From a virus (Duplodnaviria; Caudoviricetes): 61,203 bases of DNA. Under the pieces are notes generated by a model. It had not been told where the DNA came from and did no database searches. It was given only the letters and a program-made list of their open reading frames with translations. The position numbers and the translations under genes are program-made. Below, piece by piece: positions 3,919 through 45,893 of this stretch (position 1 is the stretch's first letter; every line of letters starts with the position of its first letter). The stretch lies in IMG/VR virus record IMGVR_UViG_3300042517_000342, positions 1 through 61,203 of that record; one strand, given 5' to 3'.

Positions 3919-3971
3919 GAGGCCAACATCTCGCGCTTAACCCACGTCCACGGAGGGACTAGATAACGCAC

Positions 3972-5033
3972 ATGTCAAACATCCCGAAGTCCCAGCTAGA
4001 CGCCGTAGACACCCGTGTAGAGGTGATGCTCCGAAAACTCTTTGAGGGGCGCACCGTTAACTTTGAAGACTTGAACGGGGTGGATATCTTGAGCCCCGAC
4101 GACGATGACACCCTGTTCTACAACTTCACCCTTGACCTTTGGGAGAACCACCCCCTCAAGACGATCAACGGGCAATCTCTCAAGGGTCCGGGGAACCTCA
4201 CAATTAGCGGAGGGAGTGGCTCCCCGGGGGGCTCCTCGGGCCAGTTCCAATGGAACGACTCAGGAGCCTTTGGAGGTACGACGGGTTACACTTGGAACTT
4301 TGGTACGAGCCAACCCTTGAGTACCAACGGCTACCTTCTCGGGGCTACCAGCTCCCTTGAGGAGATTGACGGAGGGGCGCTTGTCACCACCTCCACGACC
4401 CTTGAGCCTATTTCGGGGTTGGTTGCAAGTGTTGACCTCGTCTCAAACAAGTCGACCACTGCCACGGCTCGTCTCAACACCAACTCAGGAGCTACTAACA
4501 AGTTCCTCCAAGTGGAGATTAACCGAAGCTCTCCCCGGTATTTCGATGGCACAGCCCTCCAAGATGTGTGGCACACGGGGACGTTCGACCCCACTACCAA
4601 GCAAGACACTCTTGTTTCCGGCACGAATATTCGTACTGTGGGTGGCAATTCTTTGCTCGGGTCGGGAGATGTCTCGTTTCCAGTGACTTCGGTAAACACT
4701 CGCACAGGGGCAATCACTCTTACAGACACGGATGTTCCAGCAACGGTAGTGACCGAGAGCGGCACTTCGAGAGTGATGGCAAATGGAGACGCGGGTCGGT
4801 ACATTAGGTTCACATCAGGGTCGGCAAAGACAGCTACCTTCGGGACTGGCTTGAACGTTGTAGGCCAAGAGTTTCATCTTCGGAATGTGGGAGCCAACAA
4901 CTTGACTCTTACCCCTAGCAGCACAACTCTCAACGCTCCGGCTGGCGGCACGCTTATTGTCCCTCCGGGTGGCACTGTGACCGTCAAGCAAGTAGCCGCT
5001 ACGGAATTCGATGTGTTTGGAGCAACCACATGA
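3972..5033 (+). CDS. Tail fibre protein
   Basis: LKTINGQSLKGPGNLTI, GGSSGQFQWNDSGAFGG, KQDTLVSGTNIRTVGGNSLLGSG and VTSVNTRTGAITL are fibre shaft motifs. Confidence 0.8.
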   Translation: MSNIPKSQLDAVDTRVEVMLRKLFEGRTVNFEDLNGVDILSPDDDDTLFYNFTLDLWENHPLKTINGQSLKGPGNLTISGGSGSPGGSSGQFQWNDSGAFGGTTGYTWNFGTSQPLSTNGYLLGATSSLEEIDGGALVTTSTTLEPISGLVASVDLVSNKSTTATARLNTNSGATNKFLQVEINRSSPRYFDGTALQDVWHTGTFDPTTKQDTLVSGTNIRTVGGNSLLGSGDVSFPVTSVNTRTGAITLTDTDVPATVVTESGTSRVMANGDAGRYIRFTSGSAKTATFGTGLNVVGQEFHLRNVGANNLTLTPSSTTLNAPAGGTLIVPPGGTVTVKQVAATEFDVFGATT

Positions 5034-5731
5034 TTCTAGGGATGCCTGCTAGAAAGATAGCCGCTGCTGCTGTGACTGCTACTTGGTCAACCCTTAGCAA
5101 ATATCAATCTGCGCCGACAACGCTTTCCGGATCAAACCTGATCTTGACTGCTAACACAGGTGCGGTAGGCACTTACGCTAACGCCGTATCCTCGCGAGAG
5201 GTTCAAGACCTTGGGTATTATTCCGGCGTAATCGAGGCAAGCGGTGGCGAGAACGGCGTAGTCGGCTTGGCTGCCGTGAGCCGCTCTTCTCCGACTGCTA
5301 ACTTTCCCGGTGGCGCTGCTGGTTGGGTTGGTTCTGGCACAACGTCTGACGGTAGCGCAGGCATTTGGGCGAACACTGGCACCCTTTACCGGGCGGGCAA
5401 TCCCAACATCACAGGGGCTTCTGGGAACGCTATCACGGTCGAAATGGCGGTGCGCATCGTCCCGCCCTCGGGCGGTGTGTCTGAGTATCGTATCTGGATT
5501 CGGCAGTCTGGTGGTGCTTGGTACGGCGGGGGTGATCCTGTCGCAAATACCACTCCCTCTTATATCCGAAGCGTCGCGGTAGCTTCTTTCTGGGTGTGTG
5601 TTGGTGCGTCGATTGTGCGATCTGGTGCGACACCTGCCCGCAGGGCGATTCTGCATGGAGATGCTGCTAGTACGACGGGTGTTGTTCCGGCCGGATTTAC
5701 TGCCGCCCTCTGGGGTGCCGCGCTTACCTAA
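5030..5731 (+). CDS. Tail-associated beta-sandwich (SPRY/lectin-like) protein
   Basis: ATGA-coupled to the fibre gene; TLSGSNL...IWIRQSGGAWYGGGDP...VPAGFTA pattern. Confidence 0.55.
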   Translation: MILGMPARKIAAAAVTATWSTLSKYQSAPTTLSGSNLILTANTGAVGTYANAVSSREVQDLGYYSGVIEASGGENGVVGLAAVSRSSPTANFPGGAAGWVGSGTTSDGSAGIWANTGTLYRAGNPNITGASGNAITVEMAVRIVPPSGGVSEYRIWIRQSGGAWYGGGDPVANTTPSYIRSVAVASFWVCVGASIVRSGATPARRAILHGDAASTTGVVPAGFTAALWGAALT

Positions 5732-5749
5732 AGGATTCTTAACACGCAT

Positions 5750-6493
5750 ATGAACTTCGTATACAGACCAGAAATCTTTGACTTCATCTCAAAGCACGAG
5801 GGCAACGTCCTTCGAGCCTATCGAGACACAGTCGGAAAGTGGACTATTGGGCGTGGTATTACAGACCCTCGGTATGCGTTTGAGGGTAATGTTATCACAG
5901 AAGCTGAATCTGCACGATTGGCAAGAGAGTACATTCTCCGCGATATAGAGGAATGTAACCGTCTTATAAAAGTACCTACGACTTCAGATCAGCAGACCGC
6001 CATTCTCAGTCTTTGCTACAACATCGGCATGCCTCGCTTCTCTTCCTCAACGCTTTTGAGGAAGTTGAATAGCGGGGACTATGAGGGCGCCCACGCCCAG
6101 TTTATGAGGTGGAACAAAGAGACGGACCCTGTTACTAAACAGCTTCGTCCTAACAGAGGTCTAACAAACAGGCGAGCTGACGAAGCCGCTTTGTTCCTTC
6201 GTGGTACACAGGCGATGGCAAGGGAGGAAAAGAGAGATGCCGAAGAACTGGTCCCGGACCTCCCTCCCCCCGCCTATAGCAACGTGGAGCCCGCTACCCC
6301 GCCCGACTCCAGCTCCAAAGCCAAGGTCGCAGGTGGAGTCGCAGCGACAGCCGGTGCCCTCTCCCAAGTCTCTCAAGTCGAACAAGTGAGGGATGCGGTT
6401 GCCCCCCTTGCAAGTTTCAACGAGTATCTCGGTATGCTGTTTGTAGGTGTCTCCCTTCTTGCAATCTGGTATATGCTGAAGAAGGGTGACTGA
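5750..6493 (+). CDS. Endolysin, GH24 (T4-lysozyme-like) with a C-terminal hydrophobic helix
   Basis: E-x8-D-x5-T triad (HEGNVLRAYRDTVGKWTIG), YNIG, STLLRKLN, GLTNRRADE. Confidence 0.92.
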   Translation: MNFVYRPEIFDFISKHEGNVLRAYRDTVGKWTIGRGITDPRYAFEGNVITEAESARLAREYILRDIEECNRLIKVPTTSDQQTAILSLCYNIGMPRFSSSTLLRKLNSGDYEGAHAQFMRWNKETDPVTKQLRPNRGLTNRRADEAALFLRGTQAMAREEKRDAEELVPDLPPPAYSNVEPATPPDSSSKAKVAGGVAATAGALSQVSQVEQVRDAVAPLASFNEYLGMLFVGVSLLAIWYMLKKGD

Positions 6494-6618
6494 GTAGAAG
6501 GCTGCACTCAAAAGGAGGTGATCTAAATTTCTCCGCGTGCAACGACATGAGCACCCGCTGGCGCGGTTAACCCACTAGCTCAACCCCATCAACTCGTAAA
6601 TTACGAAAGAGGTGAAAA

Positions 6619-7026
6619 ATGGCTCGTAATAAATCACGAACTCCCCCGACGCTCGACCTGAGCGGGGTTTACTACAACCCCGAGAAATCAGGCTGGGGCG
6701 TCTTCATCGACAATTTCGGGGAGGAAACCCACTCGGTTGCGATCTATACGCACAACGAGCGGGGTGGTCAGGTTTGGTTGGTTGGTGCGGCTCCACGAAC
6801 AACGGGTTTCTTCAAGCTTACCGAGGCACGGGCCACGGGTTTCATGGACAGCATCCGAAACAAGATCGAATCTGATGCTGGTACGATTGAGTTCACGGAC
6901 ATCGGGAACGGTAAGCTCCAGTACAAGGCGCTTATCAACTCCCTAATCGTGTACCCCGCCCCGCAGTTCTCCCCGCCGCCTCCGGCGATCTTGGAGTTCT
7001 CGGGGGTTGTGAATAAGATGGGTTAA
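6619..7026 (+). CDS. Hypothetical protein with an SGxYYxPxxSGxG motif
   Basis: GAGGTG SD; LSGVYYNPEKSGWGVFI...IYTHNERGGQVWLVG. Confidence 0.65.
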   Translation: MARNKSRTPPTLDLSGVYYNPEKSGWGVFIDNFGEETHSVAIYTHNERGGQVWLVGAAPRTTGFFKLTEARATGFMDSIRNKIESDAGTIEFTDIGNGKLQYKALINSLIVYPAPQFSPPPPAILEFSGVVNKMG

Positions 7027-7043
7027 GAAGAACAAGGAAAGTT

Positions 7044-7077
7044 GCCGAGGCGAGGGTTAGCACCCCTCGTCCTCGGT
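7044..7077 (+). other. Intergenic stem-loop without a U-tract (processing or stability element?)
   Basis: CCGAGG-CGAGGG pairs with CCCTCG-T-CCTCGG. Confidence 0.45.
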
Positions 7078-7100
7078 CGTCTCAACAAGGAGATCGAGCG

Positions 7101-7517
7101 GTGGCAAAGGATTTGACAGCAGCTCAGATCATTGAGCTATACAAACAAGGCTACAGTGACGTAGAGGTGTGCCGAGAACTGGAGATCACCAAACGTCAGT
7201 TTGAAAAGATGAAGGCGGTTAACCCTATCTTCCGTGACCTGATTGAAAAAGGGAACGACTACGCCGAGGCTTGGAATCTTGAGCAAAGTCGGGTTAACCT
7301 TCAAAACAAAGATTTCAATACAACCCTCTTCAACACCCGCATGATGAATATGTTTGGGTGGAGCCAGAAGGTTGACCAGAACACCAAGGCACTCAACGTC
7401 AACGCTGAGATGTCCAAAGAGGAGTTGCTCAAGAAGCTGGAGTCCTATCTCCCAGAGCTTCTTCCCCACGCAAAGGTCAAGCAGTTGACCAACGAGGAGT
7501 CTACCGATGGTGAATAA
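7101..7517 (+). CDS. terS: Terminase small subunit
   Basis: Directly upstream of TerL; N-terminal HTH (YKQGYSDVEVCRELEIT), AEAW, MMNMFGW. Confidence 0.85.
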   Translation: MAKDLTAAQIIELYKQGYSDVEVCRELEITKRQFEKMKAVNPIFRDLIEKGNDYAEAWNLEQSRVNLQNKDFNTTLFNTRMMNMFGWSQKVDQNTKALNVNAEMSKEELLKKLESYLPELLPHAKVKQLTNEESTDGE

Positions 7518-9123
7518 GGACACGATGACGTTCTCGTTCTCCGATGACGACCTCGATGTGGAGAACATCAAACTTGACCTAACGATTGATGAGCAGGTAG
7601 AGAAAGCCTTGGAGATTCTCCAAGCCATCGAGAACCAAAAGGCTGTTGAGCGTGTCTCCGGCTGGGTTCGATGGTTCGTGCCCGGCACTCCCTACGGGAT
7701 TGAGAATCTCCCAAAGCACCGCGCCTTTTTTTCCGCATCTAAAGACTACCAAGAGACTTACTTCTCAGCGGCGAATCGTGTGGGGAAATCCTACGCAGGG
7801 GCGTTTCAAACCGCTTGCCACGCTTTGACTGAGTACCCCTCTTGGTGGCCCGGCCGGAAGTTCACCAAAGCTACGGACATCTGGGTTGTCGGTGACAACA
7901 AGGAAACGGTGCGAGACATTATCCAGAAGATTCTTCTGGGAGATGTTGGGAAAATGGGCACGGGTATGATTCCTGCCGATAAGATCAAGAAGGTTGTCTA
8001 CCGCCCAAACTCAGGCGGCGCTGTTGACTACGCTCTGATTGAGTCTTCGTGCGGCGGTCTTTCCCGCATCGGCTTCAAATCATCTGAGCAGGGTATTGTG
8101 TCGTTCTACGGAACTGAAAAGGATGTCATCTGGCTGGACGAGCTTCCTCCTGCCGACATCTACTCTGAGTGCTACCTCCGTACCATGACCACCAATGGTA
8201 TCATGTACGTGACGGCTACGCCCCTTGCTGGCTTGACTCCCCTTGTGTTGTCTTTTTACAACAACGCTGACTTCCTTCCCCGTGGGTCTGAAGTTCCGGG
8301 TATTGTCAAACTCTCCCGAGAAGACGAGGAAGAAAAGGCCAAGGAAGCTCTCCGACGAGGAGAGATCGACCAGATCAAGAAGAACGAGAACGTGTCAAAG
8401 GCTGTGATTGTGGCGGGCTGGGACGATGCCCCTTGGCTTTCCGAAGACGCGAAGCGTCGTATGTTGGATGCCACTCCTCCACACCTCAAGGAATCCCGCT
8501 CAAAGGGCCTCCCTTCGATGGGGTCGGGTACGATCTACACCATTCCGCTTGAGGAAGTCCTCGTCAAAGACTTCGACATCCCGGCTCACTGGAAGAAAGT
8601 GGCGGGCATGGATGTCGGCTGGTCAGCAACCGCTTGTATCTGGCTAGCCCAGAACCCCGACACCAAGGAAGTTGTGGCCTACTCTGAGTACAAACGAGGT
8701 CAAGCCGAGCCACTTATCCACGCAAGCGCGGTAAAAGGCCGGGGAGATTGGATTCCTGTGGCTATCGACCCTGCCTCCCGAGGCCGATCTCAGGTAGACG
8801 GGAAGCAGTTGTTCAACATGTACCGCGAGTTCGGGGTCAAACTCTTTCCCGCAGACAACGCCGTTGAGGCAGGCATTTACCAAATCCAAGAGATGCTGGC
8901 CACCGGGCGACTTAAGTTCTTCCGAAGCCTGTCCGAACTGGCAAAAGAGTACGTTGTTTACCGCCGAGATCAGAAAGGCCGTGTTGTCAAAGAAAACGAC
9001 CACCTTCTTGACGCGCTTCGGTACGCAGTCATGGCCCTAAAGCACGCCCGCTCACAGCCAATCCCAACTAATAACTACCACGGAGGGTCTACAAACTATG
9101 GAAGCAGGTCCTATGACTGCTGA
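7507..9123 (+). CDS. terL: Terminase large subunit
   Basis: Walker A AANRVGKS, Walker B IWLDE, coupling motif TATP, nuclease GMDVG and DHLLDALRY. Confidence 0.97.
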   Translation: MVNKDTMTFSFSDDDLDVENIKLDLTIDEQVEKALEILQAIENQKAVERVSGWVRWFVPGTPYGIENLPKHRAFFSASKDYQETYFSAANRVGKSYAGAFQTACHALTEYPSWWPGRKFTKATDIWVVGDNKETVRDIIQKILLGDVGKMGTGMIPADKIKKVVYRPNSGGAVDYALIESSCGGLSRIGFKSSEQGIVSFYGTEKDVIWLDELPPADIYSECYLRTMTTNGIMYVTATPLAGLTPLVLSFYNNADFLPRGSEVPGIVKLSREDEEEKAKEALRRGEIDQIKKNENVSKAVIVAGWDDAPWLSEDAKRRMLDATPPHLKESRSKGLPSMGSGTIYTIPLEEVLVKDFDIPAHWKKVAGMDVGWSATACIWLAQNPDTKEVVAYSEYKRGQAEPLIHASAVKGRGDWIPVAIDPASRGRSQVDGKQLFNMYREFGVKLFPADNAVEAGIYQIQEMLATGRLKFFRSLSELAKEYVVYRRDQKGRVVKENDHLLDALRYAVMALKHARSQPIPTNNYHGGSTNYGSRSYDC

Positions 9124-11550: not shown

Positions 11551-11604
11551 CCCGCAATCCGTCCGCCCATTAGAGGCCGACCTAAATCGAGGAGATTACC
11601 AGAT

Positions 11605-12819
11605 ATGAGTCAAGACACAACTGTTGACACTTCAGAAGATCAGGTGTACAATTCGGACCAACTAGAGGCTGATCCTAACGCAGAGCTACAGGCCCGTTAC
11701 ATCGAAGCCCTAGAGAGTGGTGACAAAGACAAGATCGCCACTGTCGAGAACGAGATCAACGCTCTGTTCGGAAAGAAGCCCGAGGCCGAGGAAGACCCTC
11801 CGCCCCAGACTGAACAGGCTCCGACGACTGAACAAGCGGCTCCAGCTACGGAGGAACCTGCCAAGGATGGCGGTACTTCCGAGACGGAAGATTGGCTTGC
11901 CTCTCTCGACCCGAAGGTACGCGACCTAGTTCTCCAGCGTCTTGACCAAGAGCGCAAAGCGCGAGAGTACCACGAACAGAAGTACAAGAGCGACATCGGG
12001 CGGATCACCGCCTACAAAGAAAAGTACGAGAACGAGCGCAGGGCTCGTGAGCAACTTGAGCAGAAGCTAGCGTCCACTCCGGCCAACCAGCCCGCGTCGG
12101 ACAACCGCACCCCCGCTCAGGTCAACTCGGACAACGCCAAGCTCAAGGCGCTAAACGAGCAGATTGGAAATCTCGAACGCACCGATCCAGAGTTGGCAAC
12201 CTCTCTGAAGACGCTTCGAGACGCTTTCCTTGAAGAGATTGCTAACCGAGCAGCTCCCACTCAGCCAGTTATTGACCCCTCCATTCTAGATTTCAAGCGC
12301 GAGTTCGAGCAGCAGAAGGCCGAACTGACGATTGAACGGGAGCGGTACGAACTTGAGCGGCGAGTTCCGGGTGCTCTTCAAGTCATCGACTACGTTGACC
12401 AGCGAGGTTGGAGTCCTTGGCAAGAGTTCCTTACGACCCTGCCTCCCCAGTTCCAAGCTGCTGCCAACGAGCCTAGTGCCGACGCCTACGAGGCGCTCAT
12501 GCGATTGTATATCCCGTGGGCGGAACGGTACAACGCGGCTCACGGCTACACTCAGCCTAGTCCCAATAACGAACCACCCAAGAGTGCCCAGTCCGAGGTT
12601 GATCCTCGGGCGGCTCAGGTTCAGGCCAACCGTCAATCGAAGATGGTTTCTTCCACGGCAGCAGCCCCGGTCAAGTCGAGTCCGCCTCCAGCGGGTCGAG
12701 GGGGCAACACCATCGAAGAACTCATCCAGAGCGCCCAAGGTCTTGACCCTGACTCTCCCGAGTACATGAAGATCATGGAAAGGGCTTACGCACTAGCTGA
12801 GAAGGGCGGACTCAAGTAA
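11605..12819 (+). CDS. Capsid scaffolding protein
   Basis: Acidic coiled-coil protein immediately before the major capsid gene. Confidence 0.75.
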   Translation: MSQDTTVDTSEDQVYNSDQLEADPNAELQARYIEALESGDKDKIATVENEINALFGKKPEAEEDPPPQTEQAPTTEQAAPATEEPAKDGGTSETEDWLASLDPKVRDLVLQRLDQERKAREYHEQKYKSDIGRITAYKEKYENERRAREQLEQKLASTPANQPASDNRTPAQVNSDNAKLKALNEQIGNLERTDPELATSLKTLRDAFLEEIANRAAPTQPVIDPSILDFKREFEQQKAELTIERERYELERRVPGALQVIDYVDQRGWSPWQEFLTTLPPQFQAAANEPSADAYEALMRLYIPWAERYNAAHGYTQPSPNNEPPKSAQSEVDPRAAQVQANRQSKMVSSTAAAPVKSSPPPAGRGGNTIEELIQSAQGLDPDSPEYMKIMERAYALAEKGGLK

Positions 12820-12867
12820 CCCGCCCGATCAGTCCATCTTTAATCGAATCACGGAGGATTCATCCAA

Positions 12868-13909: not shown

Positions 13910-14479
13910 ATGGCAATCTTTATCTCTGACCAGCTTCTGAATGGTGGTCTGCCGATCCGCTCGAACCATCAGGGTTTCGGTTCGATCACCACCCGTATCA
14001 CCATCCCGAACGGTACTCCGCTGGCTTCGGGCGACATCCTGAAGTTTGCTCGCGTTGCAGGCAACATCGTTCTGAAGGACGCGGTCCTGAAGACCGATGA
14101 TCTGGATACCGGCACCTCGATTGCTGGCACCATCGGCACCGTGCGCGCTGTGGTCGATCCGGCCAAGGCGTTCAACGCCACGACCAACCCGTACCTCACG
14201 GGTGCGGCTACCGCTGATGCGGCGGCTGGCCTTGGCGCTGCTGCTACCATTCAGGGCACCATGCGTACTGGCGGCGTGATCGCCGGTGCGGCGGGTCCGG
14301 TGGTCGCTGACGGTGTTGCGGATGTGGCCCTGACCCTGACGGCTTCGCCGGCTGGCAACCCGACTGCTGACCGCATCATTGAGCTGACCTTTGACTTCGG
14401 CGGTCTGACCCCGGCCAACGGCGCCTTCTCTGGCGGCAACGCTTACGACTACACGAACGAAACCGCTGACCTCGACTAA
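13910..14479 (+). CDS. Capsid decoration/cement protein
   Basis: Follows the capsid gene; Ala/Gly/Thr-rich; DDLDTGT motif; same codon bias. Confidence 0.65.
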   Translation: MAIFISDQLLNGGLPIRSNHQGFGSITTRITIPNGTPLASGDILKFARVAGNIVLKDAVLKTDDLDTGTSIAGTIGTVRAVVDPAKAFNATTNPYLTGAATADAAAGLGAAATIQGTMRTGGVIAGAAGPVVADGVADVALTLTASPAGNPTADRIIELTFDFGGLTPANGAFSGGNAYDYTNETADLD

Positions 14480-14518
14480 TCCTCGGGATTAGCGGGCCAC
14501 AAGGATGTGGCACCCCTC

Positions 14519-14565
14519 GGGGGAGGAGTTGAGGAGATGACCCTCTCTCCTCCCCCTTTTCATTT
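14519..14565 (+). terminator. Rho-independent terminator after the capsid operon
   Basis: GGGGGAGGAG/CTCCTCCCCC stem followed by TTTTCATTT. Confidence 0.75.
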
Positions 14566-26200: not shown

Positions 26201-29200
26201 GCTGGAGAGGGCGGCCTAGTCATGCCGTTGTACGCCTCTGTAAAATCTCCGTATGTGGTGGAAGCGTCTTCAAAAGAAAGAAGCATTCTAAACGACCTCT
26301 CTCCAAAGGAGATGACAGATAAACTAAAAAGGTTGGGCTTTGATGGTGTTGTGGTTGAACTTAACGGGGAGGTTCAAACAGTCGTAGCGTTTGACCCTGA
26401 GCAAGTTAAATCCGCCACAGGGAATCAAGGGTCTTTTGATCCGACCAGCCCTGACATTAGGCGGTCAGCCTCTCGTCAAAACAACAACCCCGACGTAGCC
26501 CAAGCCCGGAAGCAAGTCCTTGGTGAAGACACCTCTTTGCTCACCCGTCAAATCCAAAAGCGGACCAGTCCTTTTTCCACGACAGGACACTACGCCCGTA
26601 AGTTTGACTACTACTTGAGCCGGCTCTTTTCCTCTAAGCGAGGGGCTACCAAGTCCACCGCCGAGGCGATGAGTTATCTAGGGGGTGTTAAAGAGCGGAT
26701 GGATGCAGAGGTGACTCCGGCGATCAACCGTCTTCGAGACACACTCAGAGCGTTGAAAGGTCGTCCCAACTTCCAAGCTATCGTTGACGATGTCAACAAG
26801 GTCTTGAAAGGAGAGATGAAGATTGAAGACTCCAAGGTCATCTTGCCAGAGATCAGGGAGCGAGTCACTGATTCGGTAAAGGAAGGTCGTCGGGTAATTG
26901 ACAAGTTCTCAATGGAGATTGGCAACGAGGTGGCACGCTCTTACGAGGGACGTGACATGCCCGAAAGTGTTGTCTCTAAGCTGGAAACTATCAAGTCTCA
27001 GATTGGCAAATATGTTTCCCGTACGTACATGTCCGACTTGAAAAAGAAGTACGCCGACGAGGTGTGGAACAACTTTACCAAGGGTGTACCCGAAGCGGTA
27101 GCCACAGTCCAACCCCTTTTGAACAGGCTGACCAAAGAGATCACGGAGCTTCCCTCCGTTCTTGAGGCAGCTCGTCAAGAGGCAGCAGACCTGTCCTCGG
27201 GGAGAGCGCAGTTCTCCCCGGAGGATACGTTCACAGGCAACCAGCTTCGTCGTATGTACGAGAACTACATCGGCTCCAGCCAAGGTCGTACCAAGCAAGA
27301 TATGATCGAGGCTCTCGATAAGTTCTCCAAGGCGGCGGACAAGGACATCGGGGCGGAAGCCCGTCGAGTTGTCCAAGAGATCATGGGCGTGGGTAAGGGC
27401 GTGTCTTCTCTTGCTCAATACTACCGTGGCCTGCGGTCCAATGACAACCCGTTGAAGAGTCGCTCGTCCATCCCCGAAGAAATCCTCAAGGTGTGGGGCG
27501 AGGTTGGTGATCCGATCCTCAATCTAGTGAACACCTCTCAACGGATGGCTACCTTGCTCTCCGGTCTGAAGGCAAGTAACCTGTTGGCCGAGACAACCCC
27601 GGAGGCGTTCTCCGACAAGTACGATGCTGACTCGGGCAAGACTTCTCAGATTCCGAACAACCCGGTGGCCTATGGTCAACTCGCAGGTAAGTACACGGAC
27701 GAAGGAACCTTTGGCTTGATTGCAGGCCAGATGGAGATGGGCACTGCCCTTCTGTTTGGTAAGCCGATTGATCCGGGTCGTCTTGGTCGTAGGGGTGGTG
27801 AGCTTACACTCAACACGCTGGCAGCGATCACTCGCTATCAGAAGCTCATGGGTATTGTGACCAACCTGTATACGTTCTTGAGCAACGCCACGAACATGGT
27901 TGCCTTTCCTCTTATCAACGGGAACTTCTCTCCGAAGAACTCCGCGACGGCGGCGAAGGTTGCTGGTAAGTTGGTGGGTTCAGGGTTCCGATCTGACAAG
28001 ACTGATCCCTTGGTGCTTGAAGTTCTGGAGATGGGGATTATTGACCCAGTGTTGACCCAAGCTCAGGATGTCATCAACCAGCGTACCAAAGAAGCTCGGG
28101 CTATGCGGCGGTTCCGTGTCCTTGGAGATGTCGGCACCTCCACAAAGAGCTTCTTTACCAACATCTGGGATACGGGGCTTGAAGGGTCAGCGGTGCTTGA
28201 GACGTTCCCGAAGATTTGGAACTACCTCAACGCCAAGGAGACGATGCGGAAGATTTACCCCGATCTCTCCGAGACGGACATCAAGCGGCTGGCCGCCGAG
28301 GAAACCAACCGCCTGAACCTGACTTACGCACGAGTACCGGAGATTGTCAAGGCCACCGAAACTCTGGGTGTCTCCTACGTAGCTGGCTACATGCAGCAGG
28401 TGTTGGCTACGAGCTGGTACAGCGCCTCCTCTGGTGCCCGCCAAGCCATCGAAGGAATCCGCTCAGGAAACACCGAGCTTGCCAAGTATGGCTTGAAGAA
28501 GATTGCAGGGTCTTCGATGGCCTACGCTCTCGGCACCTACGTCCTGACCGCAGCAGCAGAGGCGATGGGTTGGATTGGTGAGGACGATGATGACCCGGAT
28601 GCTCGGGCCTTCTTTGAGTCCTTGCCCTTCCTTGAGCAAGGTCAGCAGCCCATGATTGTCCGAGTAGAAGATGACGGCACTGTGATCTACACGGACATCG
28701 GACGACTCAACCCGCTTGACTCAACTCACTCCGTGATCCGAGCAACTGTCCAAGGGTTCGTTGCTCTCAGCAAGGGAGACGCGGAGGCAGCGGAGGAGGC
28801 TGTGGCGGGGGCTTGGTCGAACCTAAGTTCTCAGTTCACCGGGGGCGGTCCTGTGTCGGATGTCCTTATCCGCACAGTACAAGGAACTCCGATGCCTCGT
28901 GCGATGGAGAACGATGCCAAGTGGCTTCACGACTACATCGTGGAGACGATGGACTATCTTCCCCTTATCGACCGAGACAGAGCCTCGAACATCGCGAACG
29001 CATCGTGGCAGTTGTTTGCGCCTGCGATGGCTAAAGGCCCGCTTCGCCAGAACCAGTTGGAGGAAGCAAACCCTGAGACGTTTGGTGCTCCCTTGATGGC
29101 TTTGGCCTTGAACGTCCGAGCCCCAGTCAACATCCACAACCCATTCCTCAACATCCAGCAGCAAGCTGAGTTCGCTTACTCCAAGGACTCTCGCGTCGGG

Positions 29201-29644
29201 GTTGAGTCTCTCAAGGAGATTCTATCCTCGACCGATGACATCTCTAAGGATGAGATCAAAGCTCAAATCCAAGATGTCATCGACGCAGAGGCCGAGGCGT
29301 TCAATGAACTTGGAACGGCAGTTCGAGGTGCTCGATATGCCGGACGTATGGCTGGGTTGTCTGAGTCTGCTATCCGAACAGGTATCCAAGCGGCTTTGAA
29401 GAACGGCAATGTCCGAGAGGACAACGCCCGAGCTATTGCCCAAGGAACAGCAGAGTTCAAGCCTCTCATCCTCGGAGACTCGTGGGGGACTGACGCCATC
29501 CAGACGGAACTCAACCGGATGAGGGGTGCCACCCGAGCAGCACGAGCCGAGCGGCAAGCTCAGATGGAACGGAGACTGGCTGAGATTAGGCAAGTGATGG
29601 CTGAGATGCAACCGCGTCGTCGGGTATCTCTCGACAACCTTTAA
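23237..29644 (+). CDS. Giant internal virion / polyvalent protein with an HEXXH metallopeptidase-like domain and an ART-PolyVal-like domain
   Basis: 2135 aa; TLHEIVH...LYEF; FKRWFDGS..V..DG.P.VVYHGT...GIYMT...LGFDGV...AFDPEQVKSATGN.G.FD. Confidence 0.8.
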   Translation: MTRIEQIQQALARARAAGDNEAAAEIEFLLAREQGEQALRVNAANPSSVNLTQEQIDERQREAVRRAEAANRAAPLPATPPSADETTIGSLAEAGGAGILDQLQQAGSFIGATVVDPVQNAIEWAEAGLVGREPRYRNRLEESRQISENLRQGLGEMSTAEQVAFGAGSAAGMIPETLVGGGLIRQGTRAGTALLNEGAETAAEFALRQTREGAAATSLLAPRLGAQTSAEAEAAGATPLEATVAGAADTLGTMLTAGLPISARGGLAKRTATGAVGGVAAEAGVQGAVNPLLPEELAAQRDLTDPTNLTTAAGLGALMGAAFGTRPAPKLSDAARDLAAMRDAEVARGIESAQELPAVAQAERAIAELMSNLPEGGLDLETRRGEASTLLDTTPVIEEPAGPSSPFLPRSDRVNLEARQGEASTLLDVPTEVVAEPQGPVSVLPGVRPQEALALDTPRGEASPIEGPEATRMRFEAQRVDAEEQTAFLQNEKQTLLQNPTRENRVRVKEIDRELGRQAIRRAVAVNALSNPPSVQSAPVEAPAPELPLTRQARVSTLDEARSLSQPIQQPEATTPAPLPQTAPTAPLTRAERVAQRTVAEQVLNPETGQMETVVEAAISPEDTRRKGIEDFFSGATTEQTAAVRQDQAAGLTNRSVDPRLEAAAAAIANRTVPPEQRRVTPLRAALGRAKTAWDALAGVRAAVARGENPNIERYDRLIQVLSTEDMKDVEFKLLQPETEATTEAQRRVKEGIGIDKYTKGLHEVDNATGKQSVVITGDGYAGRDGTKSVETTLHEIVHAKGTKAIREVLNGTEKDERIVKAVKNYENIRKEVRKADRKDLTRDEAEAVDYATENLYEFHSGAMTNPLVQSAMKKEGFFKRWVNTIRVLIGVPRSQKSALDEVLDAAYAIVDAVNTVNAERPSPQNQTNTSAFKRWFDGSSIVNDDGSPRVVYHGTRADFSEFRPGNGSYGTGIYMTPSREFAGATYGAGEGGLVMPLYASVKSPYVVEASSKERSILNDLSPKEMTDKLKRLGFDGVVVELNGEVQTVVAFDPEQVKSATGNQGSFDPTSPDIRRSASRQNNNPDVAQARKQVLGEDTSLLTRQIQKRTSPFSTTGHYARKFDYYLSRLFSSKRGATKSTAEAMSYLGGVKERMDAEVTPAINRLRDTLRALKGRPNFQAIVDDVNKVLKGEMKIEDSKVILPEIRERVTDSVKEGRRVIDKFSMEIGNEVARSYEGRDMPESVVSKLETIKSQIGKYVSRTYMSDLKKKYADEVWNNFTKGVPEAVATVQPLLNRLTKEITELPSVLEAARQEAADLSSGRAQFSPEDTFTGNQLRRMYENYIGSSQGRTKQDMIEALDKFSKAADKDIGAEARRVVQEIMGVGKGVSSLAQYYRGLRSNDNPLKSRSSIPEEILKVWGEVGDPILNLVNTSQRMATLLSGLKASNLLAETTPEAFSDKYDADSGKTSQIPNNPVAYGQLAGKYTDEGTFGLIAGQMEMGTALLFGKPIDPGRLGRRGGELTLNTLAAITRYQKLMGIVTNLYTFLSNATNMVAFPLINGNFSPKNSATAAKVAGKLVGSGFRSDKTDPLVLEVLEMGIIDPVLTQAQDVINQRTKEARAMRRFRVLGDVGTSTKSFFTNIWDTGLEGSAVLETFPKIWNYLNAKETMRKIYPDLSETDIKRLAAEETNRLNLTYARVPEIVKATETLGVSYVAGYMQQVLATSWYSASSGARQAIEGIRSGNTELAKYGLKKIAGSSMAYALGTYVLTAAAEAMGWIGEDDDDPDARAFFESLPFLEQGQQPMIVRVEDDGTVIYTDIGRLNPLDSTHSVIRATVQGFVALSKGDAEAAEEAVAGAWSNLSSQFTGGGPVSDVLIRTVQGTPMPRAMENDAKWLHDYIVETMDYLPLIDRDRASNIANASWQLFAPAMAKGPLRQNQLEEANPETFGAPLMALALNVRAPVNIHNPFLNIQQQAEFAYSKDSRVGVESLKEILSSTDDISKDEIKAQIQDVIDAEAEAFNELGTAVRGARYAGRMAGLSESAIRTGIQAALKNGNVREDNARAIAQGTAEFKPLILGDSWGTDAIQTELNRMRGATRAARAERQAQMERRLAEIRQVMAEMQPRRRVSLDNL

Positions 29645-32348: not shown

Positions 32349-32618
32349 ATGGCTACCAAGACTGTTGACCTGTTGCTTGAAGTTCGGGATGAAGAGGGTG
32401 TGGTGAATGTCACCCACCCGGCTATCGGCACCACCGAAGACGAGGGTGTGACGGTTGTCATTCCCCTTGGCTACATCCCTCCACTCCCCGGAGCGCCTAT
32501 CGCTGACCTGCGAATGACCTTGCTGCCCCTTCCTGAGCCTGTGTTCCCGACTGCCCTTATCTCTCGGGTGGATGACTTCGAGGCGGGCACGAGCACCTTG
32601 ACCTTCTCGTTCGAGTAA
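32349..32618 (+). CDS. Hypothetical protein
   Basis: AAGGAG SD; 89 aa. Confidence 0.6.
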   Translation: MATKTVDLLLEVRDEEGVVNVTHPAIGTTEDEGVTVVIPLGYIPPLPGAPIADLRMTLLPLPEPVFPTALISRVDDFEAGTSTLTFSFE

Positions 32619-32677
32619 GAGGAAGTAGAGGTACTTGGTAAGTATTACACATTTCACAGGGGAGTGAAAAAGAACAA

Positions 32678-33336: not shown

Positions 33337-33511
33337 GCATTGCGACTACGTACCGGAGATTGTGCTCCAACCGTGTGATAGTCTCACGTTCGATGAGACG
33401 TTGCCGGTGGGTCAAGCCATGTTGAACTGGGCCTTGGAGTACAACCAGTGCAAGATGAAACACGAAGTGTTGAGAGCGTGTGTCGAGGCGGACAAACCAA
33501 AGAAGAAGTAG
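33242..33511 (+). CDS. o-spanin lipoprotein (Rz1-like)
   Basis: Signal peptide with lipobox SSVG-C; overlaps the i-spanin 3' end; P..LQPC...YNQC...H. Confidence 0.8.
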   Translation: MPQSIKVILLIALALSSVGCFKRQQVVPPPSRHCDYVPEIVLQPCDSLTFDETLPVGQAMLNWALEYNQCKMKHEVLRACVEADKPKKK

Positions 33512-33519
33512 CGGAAACG

Positions 33520-33575
33520 AAAAAGGGGTCGAGCTAGTTGGAGAATTAACTCCTTCCGGCTCGACCCCTTTCTTG
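33520..33575. terminator. Bidirectional terminator between the convergent genome arms
   Basis: AAAGGGGTCGAGC / GCTCGACCCCTTT 13-bp stem with A and T tracts. Confidence 0.85.
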
Positions 33576-33582
33576 TTTGTGC

Positions 33583-33789
33583 CTATCGGTGACGGAGATC
33601 GTATAGAATCGAGCCAACCGTCTTGCCGTTTTCTGTGTAGCGACTACCTTTAAGGATCAAATCAACGTAAGGAGACATGTCAGACACCTTGCCCTCCTCG
33701 TGTGCAAGTATCAACATCATCCCACAAGTCTCTTTCCAATCCGGCCATCGGCCACGGTGGCGCTTGAACTCCACACGGGCGCTCTTCAT
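33583..33789 (-). CDS. Hypothetical protein
   Basis: 68 aa, tightly packed operon. Confidence 0.55.
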   Translation of the reverse strand: MKSARVEFKRHRGRWPDWKETCGMMLILAHEEGKVSDMSPYVDLILKGSRYTENGKTVGSILYDLRHR

Positions 33790-34135: not shown

Positions 34136-34283
34136 CGGTCTTTCCCTCCGGCTTCTTTGGCAAAGCCTTTGCTAGATTCTGAGATGCTTTTACTTGACGA
34201 TGGAACATCTCAGATGAGAACAAAACCTTCTCACTTACCTTGATAGCTCCTCCGGGTCTAAGCTCGAAGAGCGGACTACTCAT
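34128..34283 (-). CDS. Small hypothetical (51 aa, MSSPLFELRPGG...), not in the ORF track
   Basis: Read manually; fills the gap with overlaps at both ends. Confidence 0.5.
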   Translation of the reverse strand: MSSPLFELRPGGAIKVSEKVLFSSEMFHRQVKASQNLAKALPKKPEGKTDE

Positions 34284-34563
34284 CTCGACTTTCCTCCTCG
34301 CTATCAGGCTCAGCCCAGTATTCGTGTTCCTCTGGGAAATCTCCAGTCACTGTCTCTAGCAAATTCCGAGCTTGGCGGGCAAGCCGGACAATCTCCTCGA
34401 CAGCTTCCTCAATCTCTCCGAGGTCGTTCTCTCGGACGTTGATTCGGATACTGATGTCCTCGATCCGATCTACAACATCAAGGGCTTCGTAGATTGCGTA
34501 GGTATCGCAGCTTTGCACAAAGCTTTCCTCTTGTTCTTCGTAGGTTTGAAATCTGTTACTCAT
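34276..34563 (-). CDS. Acidic hypothetical protein
   Basis: 95 aa, AAGGAGG SD. Confidence 0.65.
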   Translation of the reverse strand: MSNRFQTYEEQEESFVQSCDTYAIYEALDVVDRIEDISIRINVRENDLGEIEEAVEEIVRLARQARNLLETVTGDFPEEHEYWAEPDSEEESRDE

Positions 34564-34741
34564 AGTCGGTGACCTCCTTATCGTTATCGTGAGGCAGATA
34601 GCTCACTCGGATGAGACTATATCCGCACGATGCAAGGGTGTCAACAACCGTGTGACACCCCGGTCCTCCGTGGTACATCCCCGCGATGAAGTCCGTGAAG
34701 TCGTCGTCCTCTACGACTCGGCCGATTAGGGCTAGGTACAT
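34556..34741 (-). CDS. Hypothetical protein
   Basis: 61 aa, overlaps its neighbours. Confidence 0.5.
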   Translation of the reverse strand: MYLALIGRVVEDDDFTDFIAGMYHGGPGCHTVVDTLASCGYSLIRVSYLPHDNDKEVTDYE

Positions 34742-39550: not shown

Positions 39551-39551
39551 C

Positions 39552-39890: not shown

Positions 39891-39984
39891 CTTTCATTGC
39901 CATGTACGTGATAAAGGAGCCGACTAGAGCGCCGACTGACATTGCGAAGGCAACCCAAAACATTGCCCAAATAAACTCAATCAT
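39880..39984 (-). CDS. Small membrane peptide (34 aa), not in the ORF track
   Basis: MIEFIWAMFWVAFAMSVGALVGSFITYMAMKDER; ATGA-coupled to the dUTPase stop. Confidence 0.5.
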   Translation of the reverse strand: MIEFIWAMFWVAFAMSVGALVGSFITYMAMKDER

Positions 39985-41411: not shown

Positions 41412-41613
41412 CTTTGAAAACTCCTACGTTGTCGAGAGTCACCTCTCGGAGATCAAGCCTCGTCTCGTGAGAGTTGACGAGAAAGGAGGAACCCTCGGGG
41501 ATGATGAGGACTTGACCCGAGAGAGTCTCTACTCGGAGAGGGCCTTTGTTCACTACGAGATAAGCAGGCAGCGAAGCTGACGCGAGGATGAGACTAAGGG
41601 TTGTTGATAACAT
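41398..41613 (-). CDS. Hypothetical protein
   Basis: ATG 41613 with a GAGG SD (track start 41694 less likely). Confidence 0.5.
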   Translation of the reverse strand: MLSTTLSLILASASLPAYLVVNKGPLRVETLSGQVLIIPEGSSFLVNSHETRLDLREVTLDNVGVFKDGFE

Positions 41614-41833
41614 GGAGCACCTCATCATAGGAGTCAAGCCGCCCTCCGTAATATTGACCAGTCTCTCCGGGTAAAGAGATGTAGTTCTCCTCAATGAACT
41701 TGTAATCAGACGAGATAGCTTTCTTCAACCTCTCTCGCTCCGCGAGGGTGGCGGCTTGCCAAGCAGCCTCTGCAACTTCCCACTGGTCTGGTTCAAAGTG
41801 AGCCTGCGCCCACCAACTATAAACATCCATCAT
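41594..41833 (-). CDS. Hypothetical protein
   Basis: 79 aa; AEAAWQAA motif common in small phage proteins. Confidence 0.6.
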   Translation of the reverse strand: MMDVYSWWAQAHFEPDQWEVAEAAWQAATLAERERLKKAISSDYKFIEENYISLPGETGQYYGGRLDSYDEVLHVINNP

Positions 41834-42111
41834 AGCACAGCCCCCTTGATCTCTTCAAGCGAGTCGAACACAGAGAACTTCTCGTGGTGAACCATAACGT
41901 AGTCAGTACCGGGGGGCACGTTGTTTGCGTCGGAGAGCTTTGTGAGAATGAGCTTTGAATAGCCCTTCAAGGACGCCGCATACTTCAACGCTTCTTCCTG
42001 AGTAGAGAACCGAGCAGACAAATCCCACTCGGGGTACCAACCGCCCTCCTCTGAATACAACTCGAAGTCAGCAGCCCAAGGCTCGACATACCAGCACTCA
42101 ATAGTCTTCAT
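41830..42111 (-). CDS. Hypothetical protein
   Basis: 93 aa, GAGGAGG SD. Confidence 0.6.
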   Translation of the reverse strand: MKTIECWYVEPWAADFELYSEEGGWYPEWDLSARFSTQEEALKYAASLKGYSKLILTKLSDANNVPPGTDYVMVHHEKFSVFDSLEEIKGAVL

Positions 42112-42209
42112 AAAACACCACCTCCTCTTCCGCCAAGTAATCCCACCCCGCTTGGAGGTACGCCTCGTGGGCTTGTTCCTCTGTGGGGTAGGTGGGTTCG
42201 TTGTCTAGC

Positions 42210-42719
42210 TCATACGACTGCACAAGGGCTGAGTTCATTTGACTTCATCTCGTAGCCAGAGGGATCGGGAGAGTTCTTCCACGTCTCAAACATAGGAGAG
42301 GCCAGCACCATCCGACGATACTCGCTGGCGATCTTGAGGGCGTGTTCTTTATTAAGAGCAAGACAGCCAACCTCAAGTCGGAACTCGGAAGGGCCACTCC
42401 AACGGTACTCAGGGTTGGTCTTGTAGAAGTAGGCGCGCATCTTGGCAGGGCCGACATGCTCCCCCTCCTCACCCCACTTCAAACAACCATCCTCCAATCG
42501 CATCTCGACTGTAAACCCAATAAGCTGGGACGGGTTGTAAGTGTCAAACTCCCACTCTTCAATTGCGTAGTCGCTCGGCGACCACCGCTTTGAAATCCAA
42601 CCCTCAGCTTCTTCCCTTGTACGGAATACACAGTCAATGTGGTAGTCGGAGTATTCGCCGGATGAGACCGCGTACACTCTGTCGCCAACTACACTCGGGT
42701 TTAGTTCTTCGTTAGACAT
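42210..42719 (-). CDS. Hypothetical protein (VYAVSSGEYSDY...F.TREEAE family)
   Basis: ATG 42719 with a GGAG SD; the upstream part of the track ORF runs through a structured leader. Confidence 0.7.
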   Translation of the reverse strand: MSNEELNPSVVGDRVYAVSSGEYSDYHIDCVFRTREEAEGWISKRWSPSDYAIEEWEFDTYNPSQLIGFTVEMRLEDGCLKWGEEGEHVGPAKMRAYFYKTNPEYRWSGPSEFRLEVGCLALNKEHALKIASEYRRMVLASPMFETWKNSPDPSGYEMKSNELSPCAVV

Positions 42720-42997
42720 AGCAATCTCCGATTGCGGATCACTCGTTTCCTTTGGAAACTGAGGTGGGTTTGAGAAAGTCCCGCTTACCGTGTACGGGGA
42801 GGTTGCTCGTGGCCCGTGCTTCGTCCGAGAGGGGAACGGGAGCCACCCGAAACGAAACCCTCGGCTCAACTCGCACAAGTCGCTCGCTTGTTTACACAAG
42901 CCTGTCGGCTAACAGGCTTTCCTCGGTTAGTCAATCAAAGGCTAAGCGGGCAAGGCCCGTGTCCTCGCTGGTTGCGCATCACTCTGACGACGATCCC
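42720..42997 (-). ncRNA. Candidate structured ncRNA or long 5' leader
   Basis: Own sigma70 promoter, dense hairpins, 5'/3' complementary ends; no convincing protein. Confidence 0.45.
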
Positions 42998-43026
42998 AAT
43001 TTAACTCCTCAACCTTCGGTTGTCAA
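42998..43026 (-). promoter_or_regulatory. sigma70-type promoter
   Basis: TTGACA-17 bp-TAAATT on the minus strand. Confidence 0.75.
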
Positions 43027-43049
43027 GCGAAGTTTGGTGAAGGATTGTG

Positions 43050-44960: not shown

Positions 44961-44973
44961 AGTTCCTTTTTGT

Positions 44974-45051
44974 ACAACCTCCGTGTTGTCTTAGGGAAAG
45001 CCCGGTACGGGCGTATGAGGCCCGCCCACGAGCTGCGCTCGTCTTAGGGCC
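44974..45051 (-). promoter_or_regulatory. Structured nrdJ 5' leader (three-way junction plus a GGA hairpin)
   Basis: Stems GCCC/GGGC, ACGAGC/GCUCGU, GCGGGC/GCCCGU and ACAAC-ACGGAG-GUUGU; CCCUAAGAC twice. Confidence 0.5.
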
Positions 45052-45052
45052 G

Positions 45053-45083
45053 AAAGAAAACCCCCGGTTGTTTAGGCCGGGGG
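45053..45083 (-). terminator. Rho-independent terminator after the tRNA
   Basis: CCCCCGG/CCGGGGG stem followed by TTTTCTTT on the minus strand. Confidence 0.75.
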
Positions 45084-45112
45084 TGGGGTAAAGATGGCAG
45101 GGCTGGTAGGAG

Positions 45113-45186
45113 TGGCAGGGGTACCCCGTACTGACCGGGGGCTAGGTGTTTCAAAGACACCTGTGCTACCTTTACACCATACCCCT
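45113..45186 (-). tRNA. tRNA-Gln(UUG) with a non-canonical T-loop
   Basis: Acceptor AGGGGTA/TACCCCT+GCCA; D arm GTGT/GCAC; anticodon arm GGTGT-CTTTGAA-ACACC; T stem CCCCG/CGGGG with loop GTCAGTA. Confidence 0.8.
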
Positions 45187-45867
45187 ATGAATCTCCTCAA
45201 GTTTCCTAGCCCGTTTGTAGTTTGATCCGATTGACAAACCAACAGACTTAAACGCTGTTGGGTACCTCCAATCGTGTAGTATTAACGCATTCAAAAGTTC
45301 TTCGTCTGATACTTTGTACCGGCCGGCGCTGGGGTTTGGAGAGCACCCCTTGCAGAGGGAAGAGCGGCGGTACTTTAGCTCTCCGCAAGATGGGCACGCA
45401 TCTTTCAGGCGTTTGTGGCGAGCATCTACTCTGGCCTCCTTAGAAACCTTCCCGTAGAACCAGCCCTCCGGAGGGGGCTCTTTGGACTTTCTCGACTCCC
45501 CTTGACCGTTGTGAATCCATCTGCTCCCGTGCTGGGAGTTTCTCTCTCCACTCTGAAAGTGGGACATAGCGGCAGCATGTCTGCGTCGAAGCCATCCATA
45601 CATTTTCCTGTTAACCCTGCCCGGAGTGCTCCGAGAAGACACGCACATCTTCCCAGCAGCTAAGGCTAGGCCGTGATGCGATGGGTGTATTTTCACCAGC
45701 AGAAGGTGGGCAAGAAAGTGCTCCTCCGGCGTAAGAATCGCAATGTTCTCTGGCTCATCTCCGCCGCCCATGCAGCGTGGGATTATATGGTGTCTTTCTA
45801 CGTAGCCGGAAAGCTCTCTATGAAAAGACCTTCGCATCAGATCATCATAAATTCTTGCGTAATTCAA
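45172..45867 (-). CDS. HNH homing endonuclease
   Basis: MNYARIY, ERHHIIPRCMGG...N...LTPEEHFLAHLLL; NUMOD-like GERNSQHG, WIHNG; CxxC...CxxC. Confidence 0.9.
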   Translation of the reverse strand: MNYARIYDDLMRRSFHRELSGYVERHHIIPRCMGGGDEPENIAILTPEEHFLAHLLLVKIHPSHHGLALAAGKMCVSSRSTPGRVNRKMYGWLRRRHAAAMSHFQSGERNSQHGSRWIHNGQGESRKSKEPPPEGWFYGKVSKEARVDARHKRLKDACPSCGELKYRRSSLCKGCSPNPSAGRYKVSDEELLNALILHDWRYPTAFKSVGLSIGSNYKRARKLEEIHRGMV

Positions 45868-45893
45868 AAGGCCCTCCTTGGCCCTAGTTTAAA

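Follow-up and report, generated by a model that had tools for sequence, protein, structure and literature searches.

A conserved, covarying A-N-G-G-A-N hexaloop hairpin family, mostly at start sites, of a freshwater phage, and its possible reading by a CsrA/RsmA-type protein

Hairpin sites in the phage genome

The window analyzed here is a whole phage record of 61,203 bases (IMG/VR virus record IMGVR_UViG_3300042517_000342; Caudoviricetes), with virion and lysis genes on the plus strand up to ~33 kb and replication and nucleotide-metabolism genes on the minus strand beyond ~33 kb. It carries a family of small hairpins, each with a 3–6 bp stem of free sequence, a six-base loop A-N-G-G-A-N and usually a C-G closing pair. 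Six members lie on or just upstream of ribosome-binding sites (RBSs), at a putative fiber gene, the portal gene, the major capsid gene, the ribonucleotide reductase (RNR) leader, a 95-amino acid (aa) early gene and a homing-endonuclease gene, and two lie elsewhere, in the interior of the scaffold gene and in the 3′ untranslated region (UTR) of the capsid operon. All seven hairpins claimed in an initial annotation were present exactly, together with the AAGGAA that follows the hairpin of the RNR gene nrdJ and puts a second GGA at the true Shine-Dalgarno (SD) position, and the common word of the class was the CsrA/RsmE-type hexaloop CANGGANG, as proposed there. The set had been called genome-wide; the class is real and that description overstated, with ~7–9 sites among ~90 genes. 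Gene labels held for the portal, capsid, class II RNR and homing endonuclease, the last (ORF 45172–45867; ORF, open reading frame) being phrog_655 with E = 1.3e-48. The label of tail fiber is putative: gene 3972–5033 had no match to a named family, and is called a fiber gene here from its position and variable C-terminus. The scaffold label comes from position and from the annotation of the equivalent gene of Stenotrophomonas phage StenR_269. Gene starts were taken from a simple purpose-made caller, to which 13 ORFs were added by hand. The sites are as follows.

3946–3959 (+): hexaloop hairpin GTCC-ACGGAG-GGAC, 12 nt before the ATG of the putative fiber gene 3972–5033
9077–9088 (+): hexaloop hairpin ACC-ACGGAG-GGT, portal RBS, within the 3′ end of the large-terminase ORF 7507–9123
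11585–11597 (+): pentaloop hairpin AATC-GAGGA-GATT, scaffold RBS; weak, −0.5 kcal/mol
11860–11871 (+): internal hexaloop hairpin GCC-AAGGAT-GGC, inside the scaffold gene, codons A-K-D-G, from codon 85; not at an RBS
12846–12861 (+): hexaloop hairpin GAATC-ACGGAG-GATTC, major capsid RBS
14496–14511 (+): hexaloop hairpin GCCAC-AAGGAT-GTGGC, 3′ UTR of the capsid operon, between the stop codon (14477–14479) and the terminator (14519–14565); not at an RBS
32652–32669 (+): hexaloop hairpin TTTCAC-AGGGGA-GTGAAA with a variant loop, RBS of a 104-aa gene beside the Rz-like spanin
34571–34582 (−): GAT-AAGGAG-GTC with a closing U.G pair, RBS of early gene 34276–34563 (95 aa)
42721–42735 (−): pentaloop hairpin GCAAT-CGGAG-ATTGC, 1 nt before the ATG at 42719 (169-aa reading, ORF 42210–42899)
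44963–44968 (−): second GGA element AAGGAA, nrdJ SD position, with its GGA beginning 16 nt past that of the hairpin
44974–44989 (−): hexaloop hairpin ACAAC-ACGGAG-GTTGT, RNR (nrdJ) leader, 13 nt before the ATG at 44960
45870–45883 (−): hexaloop hairpin GGCC-AAGGAG-GGCC, RBS of the homing-endonuclease ORF 45172–45867, TTG start

The distance from GGAGG to the start codon was 10 nt at the capsid gene and 11 nt at the portal gene, like other late genes (typically 9–11 nt), and 15 nt at the fiber gene and 17 nt at nrdJ. Stem energies of the hexaloop hairpins ran from −1.0 (portal) to −6.0 kcal/mol. Folding in 70 nt of context kept the hairpin at four of seven sites (fiber, RNR, endonuclease and the 104-aa gene) and lost it at the portal, capsid and scaffold. 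When 16 distinct hairpins were aligned, the inner 3 pairs formed in 16/16, the rows having been picked as hairpins.

Both stem-loops away from RBSs were conserved in all four genomes compared, the window and its relatives G001, G002 and G003. The 3′ UTR member follows gene 13910–14479, has no credible start downstream and is succeeded by a strong terminator (10-bp G/C stem at 14519–14556, then a T run); it is identical in G003, and reads GCCAC-AAGGACTA-GTGGC at the same place in G001 and G002 despite a diverged spacer. The scaffold-internal member reads CCGCC-AAGGAA-GGCGG in G003 and GCGCC-AAGGAA-GGCGC in G001 and G002. Its codons, A-K-(D/E)-G, form a conserved island within an otherwise unalignable linker, and its outer pair is kept (C-G to G-C) through the amino acid change P..G to S..A; in the window, no in-frame ATG, GTG or TTG was found within 45 nt downstream. 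The loops of these two members are AAGGAU or AAGGAA and not GGAG, and therefore the letters common to all members are C-A-N-G-G-A-N-G, which is the word of CsrA/RsmE and not that of the SD.

The 3′ end of the capsid operon (14479–14565) holds three hairpins in series: TAATCC-TCG-GGATTA, the GGA-loop hairpin, and the 10-bp G/C terminator stem followed by TTTTCATTT.

Hairpin structure is maintained while stem letters change

Relatives came from public viral contigs, searched with the capsid, RNR and portal, and from one metagenome scan, which added only 3 loci. The capsid protein is ~98% identical in the close clade, which was extended by one locus (L123) at 89%, and 56%–61% identical in the distant clade. 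Whole relatives compared were G003 (close) and G001 and G002 (distant). The sites compared as follows.

Fiber site: GTCC/GGAC in the window, G003 and L005; AGCC-AAGGAG-GGCT in G001, G002, L014 and L018; two pairs changed on both sides
Portal site: ACC/GGT in the window and G003; ATCCC-AAGGAG-GGGAT in L005; GCC-AAGGAG-GGC in the G002 clade; TTGCA-AAGGAG-TGCAA in G001
Capsid site: GAATC-AAGGAG-GATTC in L123; ATC-AAGGAG-GAT in L124; TCTATC-AAGGAG-GATAGA in 13 distant-clade loci
RNR leader: ACAAC/GTTGT in the window and close clade; CGAAC-ACGGAG-GTTCG in G001, G002 and L023/L024; two pairs changed on both sides
95-aa early gene: GAT-AAGGAG-ATC in G003; CAAC-ACGGAG-GTTG in G001; AAC-ACGGAG-GTT in G002
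104-aa gene, loop AGGGGA: TTTCAC/GTGAAA in the window and G003; ACAC-AGGGGA-GTGT in G002; 2 bp left in G001

Pair changes on both stem sides numbered at least 10 across five groups. RNAalifold, applied to eight capsid leaders, returned just the capsid hairpin, with 2 compensatory pairs and with L124 broken in the outer two pairs; no hairpin was seen at the portal site of L006. In the RNR leader, the gene behind the hairpin was swapped, being nrdJ in the window, G003 and L023, a class II RNR of 28% identity in G002 and the class I small chain in G001. An intrinsic terminator lay 25–75 nt upstream of this hairpin (44961–45130 region; G001, G002 and L023 compared), and the position of the second GGA was taken by AGAGAA-type purine runs in G001, G002 and L023. 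Among nrdJ relatives of unrelated phages (~66%–70% identical), no leader hairpin was found in the 38 of 80 loci inspected.

The genes that carry hairpins coincided between clades. For orthologue pairs in which both members had GGAG before the start, overlap between the window and G001 was 3/3 among 16 pairs (4 hairpins in G001; hypergeometric P = 0.007), and between the window and G002 was 4/4 among 17 pairs (5 hairpins in G002; P = 0.002). Where a gene had no hairpin, it stayed that way. In contigs of four public runs, which cannot show RNA ends, no difference fell within the hairpins among the rows listed. The comparisons of relatives show that selection maintains the hairpin structure while the stem letters change, and that the A-N-G-G-A-N hexaloop hairpins form a conserved, covarying family. 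Conservation of stems in relatives, set as a check in the initial annotation, was borne out at orthologous genes, with compensatory changes, and failed at the scaffold pentaloop, which reads AAT-AGGAG-ATT in G003 and is absent in G001 and G002. Neither the homing-endonuclease gene nor the 169-aa ORF at 42719 has a homologue in the three relatives.

The bare word CANGGANG was not enriched in the window (45 versus 42.7 expected). In a hexaloop closed by a stem of at least 4 bp (C-G pair counted), it was found in 5 of these 45 words on both strands; in dinucleotide-preserving shuffles of the window, the check that the initial annotation had suggested, the mean was 0.75 and 0/300 reached 5. Stems of at least 3 bp numbered 7 against a shuffle mean of 2.87, with 5/300 shuffles reaching 7. 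Counts at 4 bp or more in the relatives were 6/43 (G001), 5/42 (G002) and 5/54 (G003), with shuffle means of 0.64–0.76 and the observed count reached in 0, 0 and 2 of 300 shuffles, respectively. Because real sequence is more palindrome-rich than shuffles, the real-genome rate was also used: 2.05% of 9462 C-N6-G sites in the window have such a stem, giving a binomial p of 0.002, and p values for each genome against its real-genome baseline were 0.0014–0.009. Hexaloops with stems of at least 4 bp enclosed 4 of the 42 RBS GGAGs (3–20 nt before a start) versus 3 of 792 elsewhere (Fisher p = 1.8e-4); with the automatic gene list alone, the figures were 3/39 RBS GGAGs versus 4/795 others. When 20 combinations of loop length and GGA position were compared, the sole excess was the hexaloop with GGA at positions 3–5 (plus the same hairpins one pair shorter), and all 20 geometries pooled gave 9 RBS hairpins in the window versus 6.4 expected. 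The hairpins are a real, selected class and more than chance.

Named relatives were also inspected. No capsid-gene hairpin of the window's type was found in StenR_269, vB_Pun_Y3, MW202426 or Rollin, and Xanthomonas phage DES1 was left out of the class, its SD-in-loop hairpins having mixed loop sizes.

Two further observations concern start-site and repeated elements. A near-identical RBS cassette (ATCGGAGATTGCT + ATG) precedes non-homologous genes, the 169-aa ORF of the window (42719) and the G001 and G003 orthologues of gene 58196–58594, which suggests recombination at RBS modules. A tandem 24-nt unit with a CCACC-N6-GGTGG hairpin core is present in 14 copies in G001 (33438–33770) and 5 copies in G002 (25924–26040), and in none in the window or G003.

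Gene content and host hints

The plus strand encodes a lysozyme, the small and large terminase, an SU10-type portal, an adaptor, the capsid, a 2135-aa polyvalent protein with an ADP-ribosyltransferase (ART) domain and the Rz-like spanin. Genes for class II RNR, ThyX, dUTPase, a family A DNA polymerase split by HNH genes, a T7-type primase-helicase and endonuclease I are on the minus strand. No phage RNA polymerase was found among the genes of the window, and most of its ~90 ORFs have no family assignment. Searched with Rfam 15 at the gathering score, no hairpin site was matched; the sole match in the window was a tRNA at 45116–45186. This tRNA-Gln (anticodon TTG; 45113–45186, −) overlaps the 3′ end of the homing-endonuclease ORF 45172–45867.

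The record ends cut a G-rich direct terminal repeat (1–70 versus 61134–61203, 65/70 identical). The family A DNA polymerase is fragmented (47476–51123, −) into an exonuclease part (49922–50413) and a polymerase part (47992–49671), with HNH-AP2 endonuclease genes upstream of the exonuclease part (50407–51123) and downstream of the polymerase part (47476–47979); an additional HNH gene lies at 54719–55195. In the polyvalent protein (23237–29644, +; 2135 aa, virion-type), the ART-PolyVal ADP-ribosyltransferase domain comprises residues 944–1067 and is similar to proteins of phage F116 and of a Limnohabitans phage. At window positions 9003–9010, inside the large-terminase gene near its 3′ end and some 70 nt upstream of the portal hairpin, a contig of run X2 has 996 extra letters that may represent a mobile insertion in a relative. 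Three exact copies of the 10-mer TCCCAACTAA were found, at 2917, 9062 and 13879 (+), at or near gene ends of the late region; with one mismatch allowed there were 6 matches versus 3.1 expected, which is not significant.

A nucleotide search against named phages gave no match to the window, which thus has no close named relative. Nearest by protein were DES1 and StenR_269, with capsid and portal proteins 36%–42% identical. Near-identical DNA was found in lake, freshwater, biofilm, wastewater and drinking-water runs (13 studies). The host is probably Gram-negative, because a spanin gene is present. The gammaproteobacterial host hinted at in the initial annotation is weakly favored by the Xanthomonas and Stenotrophomonas phages and the Gram-negative spanin, and is offset by portal relatives at greater distance, which infect Alphaproteobacteria.

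Candidate readers of the loop

The loop letters bear on whether the hairpin serves a reader or the SD. In a scan for NNGGAG, which is independent of CANGGANG, loop position 1 was A at 4/4 hairpin RBSs of the window versus 11/35 other GGAG RBSs, and at 5/5 versus 12/35 in G001, 5/5 versus 13/40 in G003 and 4/5 versus 14/33 in G002. Where this A is kept beside C at position 2, continuity of pairing with the anti-SD is broken. In the window's lineage, the fiber, portal and capsid loops are all ACGGAG, whereas L123 (89%) and the distant clade have AAGGAG, as do unstructured SDs of the window. Hexaloop members with stems of at least 3 bp matched CANGGANG in 7/7 cases in the window, as the search pattern entails.

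Csr/Rsm is a major post-transcriptional switch in many Gram-negative bacteria, and CsrA/RsmA/RsmE recognition is known from the RsmE-hcnA structure and the CANGGANG hexaloop consensus. To our knowledge, the CsrA/RsmA family is the sole reader of A(N)GGA-loop specificity. From this specificity alone, the hairpins may be read by a host CsrA/RsmA-type protein, a tentative assignment to which we give somewhat less than even confidence; such a reader would be the host's because the phage has no CsrA-family gene. The window's sites share with known CsrA/RsmA/RsmE sites a six-base loop with GGA at positions 3–5 and A at position 1, closed mostly by C-G, on stems that are short and weak. At several genes they also overlap the SD, and the RNR leader combines an upstream hairpin with an SD site, the two GGAs being 16 nt apart. 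Weak stems fit protein-stabilized sites and were counted for the CsrA reading. The CsrA consensus obtained by SELEX is RUACARGGAUGU, in which ACA and GGA are invariant and GGA is in a hairpin loop (PMC4347634, excerpt); the core of the 3′ UTR member, ACAAGGAUGU, equals the SELEX core quoted in that excerpt, a further likeness. Primary CsrA sites are A(N)GGA, and dimers bridge two sites 10–63 nt apart (PMC4066749, excerpt). Unlike known sites, those of the window belong to a lytic phage and are found on virion, RNR and early genes; they are mostly single, have G at loop position 6 in RBS members and mostly show CCA or UCA in place of ACA.

Under this proposal, a protein that recognizes the A(N)GGA loop would dock on the hairpins. 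A dimer bound at a start site would be in competition with the 30S subunit, and translation of the hairpin genes would be set by the free CsrA pool; sites away from RBSs, carried by the abundant transcript of the capsid operon, would increase avidity or titrate the protein. The fuller version, that a lytic freshwater lineage built CsrA/RsmA sites into the fiber, portal, capsid and RNR starts and into non-coding positions of its most abundant late transcript, so that Csr/Rsm gates virion output and late mRNA acts as a CsrA sponge, is possible and in our estimate rather doubtful.

Several results weigh against CsrA as the reader. The match of the non-RBS members to CANGGANG is not evidence, because they were found with that pattern, and their conservation alone is independent. 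ACA-N-GGA occurs only in the RNR leader and 3′ UTR members, the others having CCA or UCA, and U follows GGA in the window only in the two non-RBS members. The word has exceptions in the AGGGGA loop of the 104-aa gene and in A-U or U-A closing pairs in 4/16 distinct hairpins. In the distant clade, the loop letters are explained by SD selection alone, because AAGGAG(G) is an ideal SD. CsrA is not universal among bacteria, and searches for the host with the capsid alignment and the fiber protein against bacterial genome contigs (two scans) found no relatives. No csrA gene was present in the window (97 ORFs; six frames) or in G001, G002 or G003. There is no obvious gain from repressing capsid synthesis by a factor abundant in growing cells, and a literature search (titles and abstract openings) found no earlier case of a host CsrA acting on a lytic phage's structural genes. 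Recognized CsrA targets contain no fewer than three sites, and a lone A(N)GGA site is readily mistaken for an SD (PMC4066749, excerpt). By the CSRA_TARGET criteria given there, coded as at least 3 sites with at least 2 pairs 10–60 nt apart, 0/5 hairpin genes passed with 200, 100 or 60 nt upstream; at 200 nt, 12/80 genes overall and 8% of random positions passed. A CsrB-like sponge was sought without success: the stretches richest in A(N)GGA (8–9 per 150 nt) were all coding, and none fell in gaps between genes of the window.

The same single-site pattern counts for a protein-free account, in which a short stem keeps the SD unpaired and pre-stacked in the loop, the 30S subunit is the sole reader, and the SD is shielded from long-range pairing or from nucleases and initiation tuned. 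We consider this account unlikely, though a serious contender: it requires no host assumption, the late genes are single-site, 6/8 conserved members hold either the SD of the gene or a GGAGG resembling one, the distant-clade loop with its closing G (AAGGAGG) is a perfect SD, and in DES1 the SD is placed in hairpin loops of several sizes, TAATC-AGGA-GATTA at the capsid gene among them. It sits poorly with the two conserved members that are off start sites and without GGAG, which therefore favor a loop reader over SD function alone, with the excess of one loop geometry only (9 versus 6.4 when all 20 are pooled), and with retention of the loop A where C follows. The fiber and RNR hairpins lie 15–17 nt from the AUG, expression level is not tracked because the set mixes the 12-copy portal with the capsid, the most abundant protein, and the 70-nt context fold keeps the hairpin at only 4/7 sites, losing it at the portal, capsid and scaffold. 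That the hairpins have no function, being chance palindromes around strong SDs that were then inherited, is very improbable. Short stems, the modest significance per genome against the real-genome baseline, the choice of geometry after seeing the data and the ~225 GGA-in-loop configurations with a 4-bp stem that occur by chance genome-wide speak for it, against which stand the clade-specific stems that remain complementary at the same genes, with the double-sided pair changes described above, the replication of the enrichment in three further genomes and the coincidence of hairpin genes between clades.

A reader encoded by the phage itself, either a hidden translational repressor or a RegB-like endoribonuclease cutting exposed GGAG, would place a timer on RNR and virion genes. 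T4 offers precedents, such a protein could hide among the unassigned ORFs because most of the ~90 have no family, and the contrast between ACGGAG loops in the window's lineage and AAGGAG elsewhere, including unstructured SDs of the window, suggests co-evolution with one common reader. Searches of 97 ORFs at E 0.01 and of 68 ORFs versus PHROGs turned up no RegB, RegA, CsrA or further RNA-binding family, the AAGGAU and AAGGAA loops of the non-RBS members break a GGAG rule, and the RegB consensus GGAGRAYARAA is not matched because the stem occupies its 3′ side; on balance, a phage-coded reader appears improbable. Two proteins were considered as readers and rejected as not credible, a basic 92-aa protein (45894–46172) with no informative match and an acidic, conserved 89-aa protein (32349–32618) with no family.

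Known phage systems resemble the hairpins in part. T4 RegB cuts GGAG in start regions, preferring an unpaired GGA and a constrained fourth G (PMC3014915, excerpt), and the RBS members have a start-region GGAG of just this kind; unlike RegB targets, the window has no RegB homologue (97 ORFs), no A-rich 3′ context and non-RBS members without GGAG, and T4 late transcripts are RegB-resistant, whereas late genes of the window carry the motif. The coat-protein operator of RNA phages is a small hairpin at or near an RBS. This operator and those of T4 gp43 and RegA share with the window's hairpins a small RBS-adjacent hairpin with a conserved loop and free stem sequence, and differ in that they act on a single gene, or on a set to which a known phage protein binds; the window has 6–8 sites, no candidate protein and a loop that doubles as the SD. 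T4 gp43 binds a hairpin operator at its own RBS (PMC3014915, excerpt).

Interaction of phages with the Csr/Rsm system is known from phages that encode csrA (F116, PTXU04 and others), from which the window and its three relatives differ in having no csrA. Genes of the csrA family were found in 30/2517 phage genomes, some with hosts that lack a chromosomal copy (PMC7366521, excerpt), and knock-down of a phage csrA gene gave smaller plaques, although the role of phage-borne csrA in the phage life cycle is barely tested (PMC11879866, excerpt); phages therefore engage the Csr system. The excerpts of PMC7366521 and PMC11879866 report no target of a phage CsrA. In F116 (L133/L134), a GC-rich hairpin of the GCGCGCAGGAGTGCGC type with an AGGA/GGAG loop occurs three times in the late region, at ~33510, 33960 and 39450. 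These hairpins adjoin an annotated CsrA-like gene (33363–33569) and one is on the p49 RBS, which is an anecdote and not a test; the F116 copies are one repeated sequence, whereas the stems in the window covary. Host CsrA represses the ColE7 lysis gene cel (PMC2896534, excerpt), a likeness in that host CsrA acts on a gene of an extrachromosomal element, and a difference in that this is a single gene of a plasmid colicin operon and not of a phage.

Conserved, covarying hairpins of the CsrA type on structural genes of lytic phages were unreported in the literature searched (titles and abstract openings), and their covarying stems ease testing by compensatory mutants. If the reader is CsrA, the phage would be a directly testable case of a virus that, at the translational level, reads or rewires its host's physiological state. 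If the reader is not CsrA, the hairpins would still be a new, well-supported cis-regulatory RNA motif of phage mRNAs.

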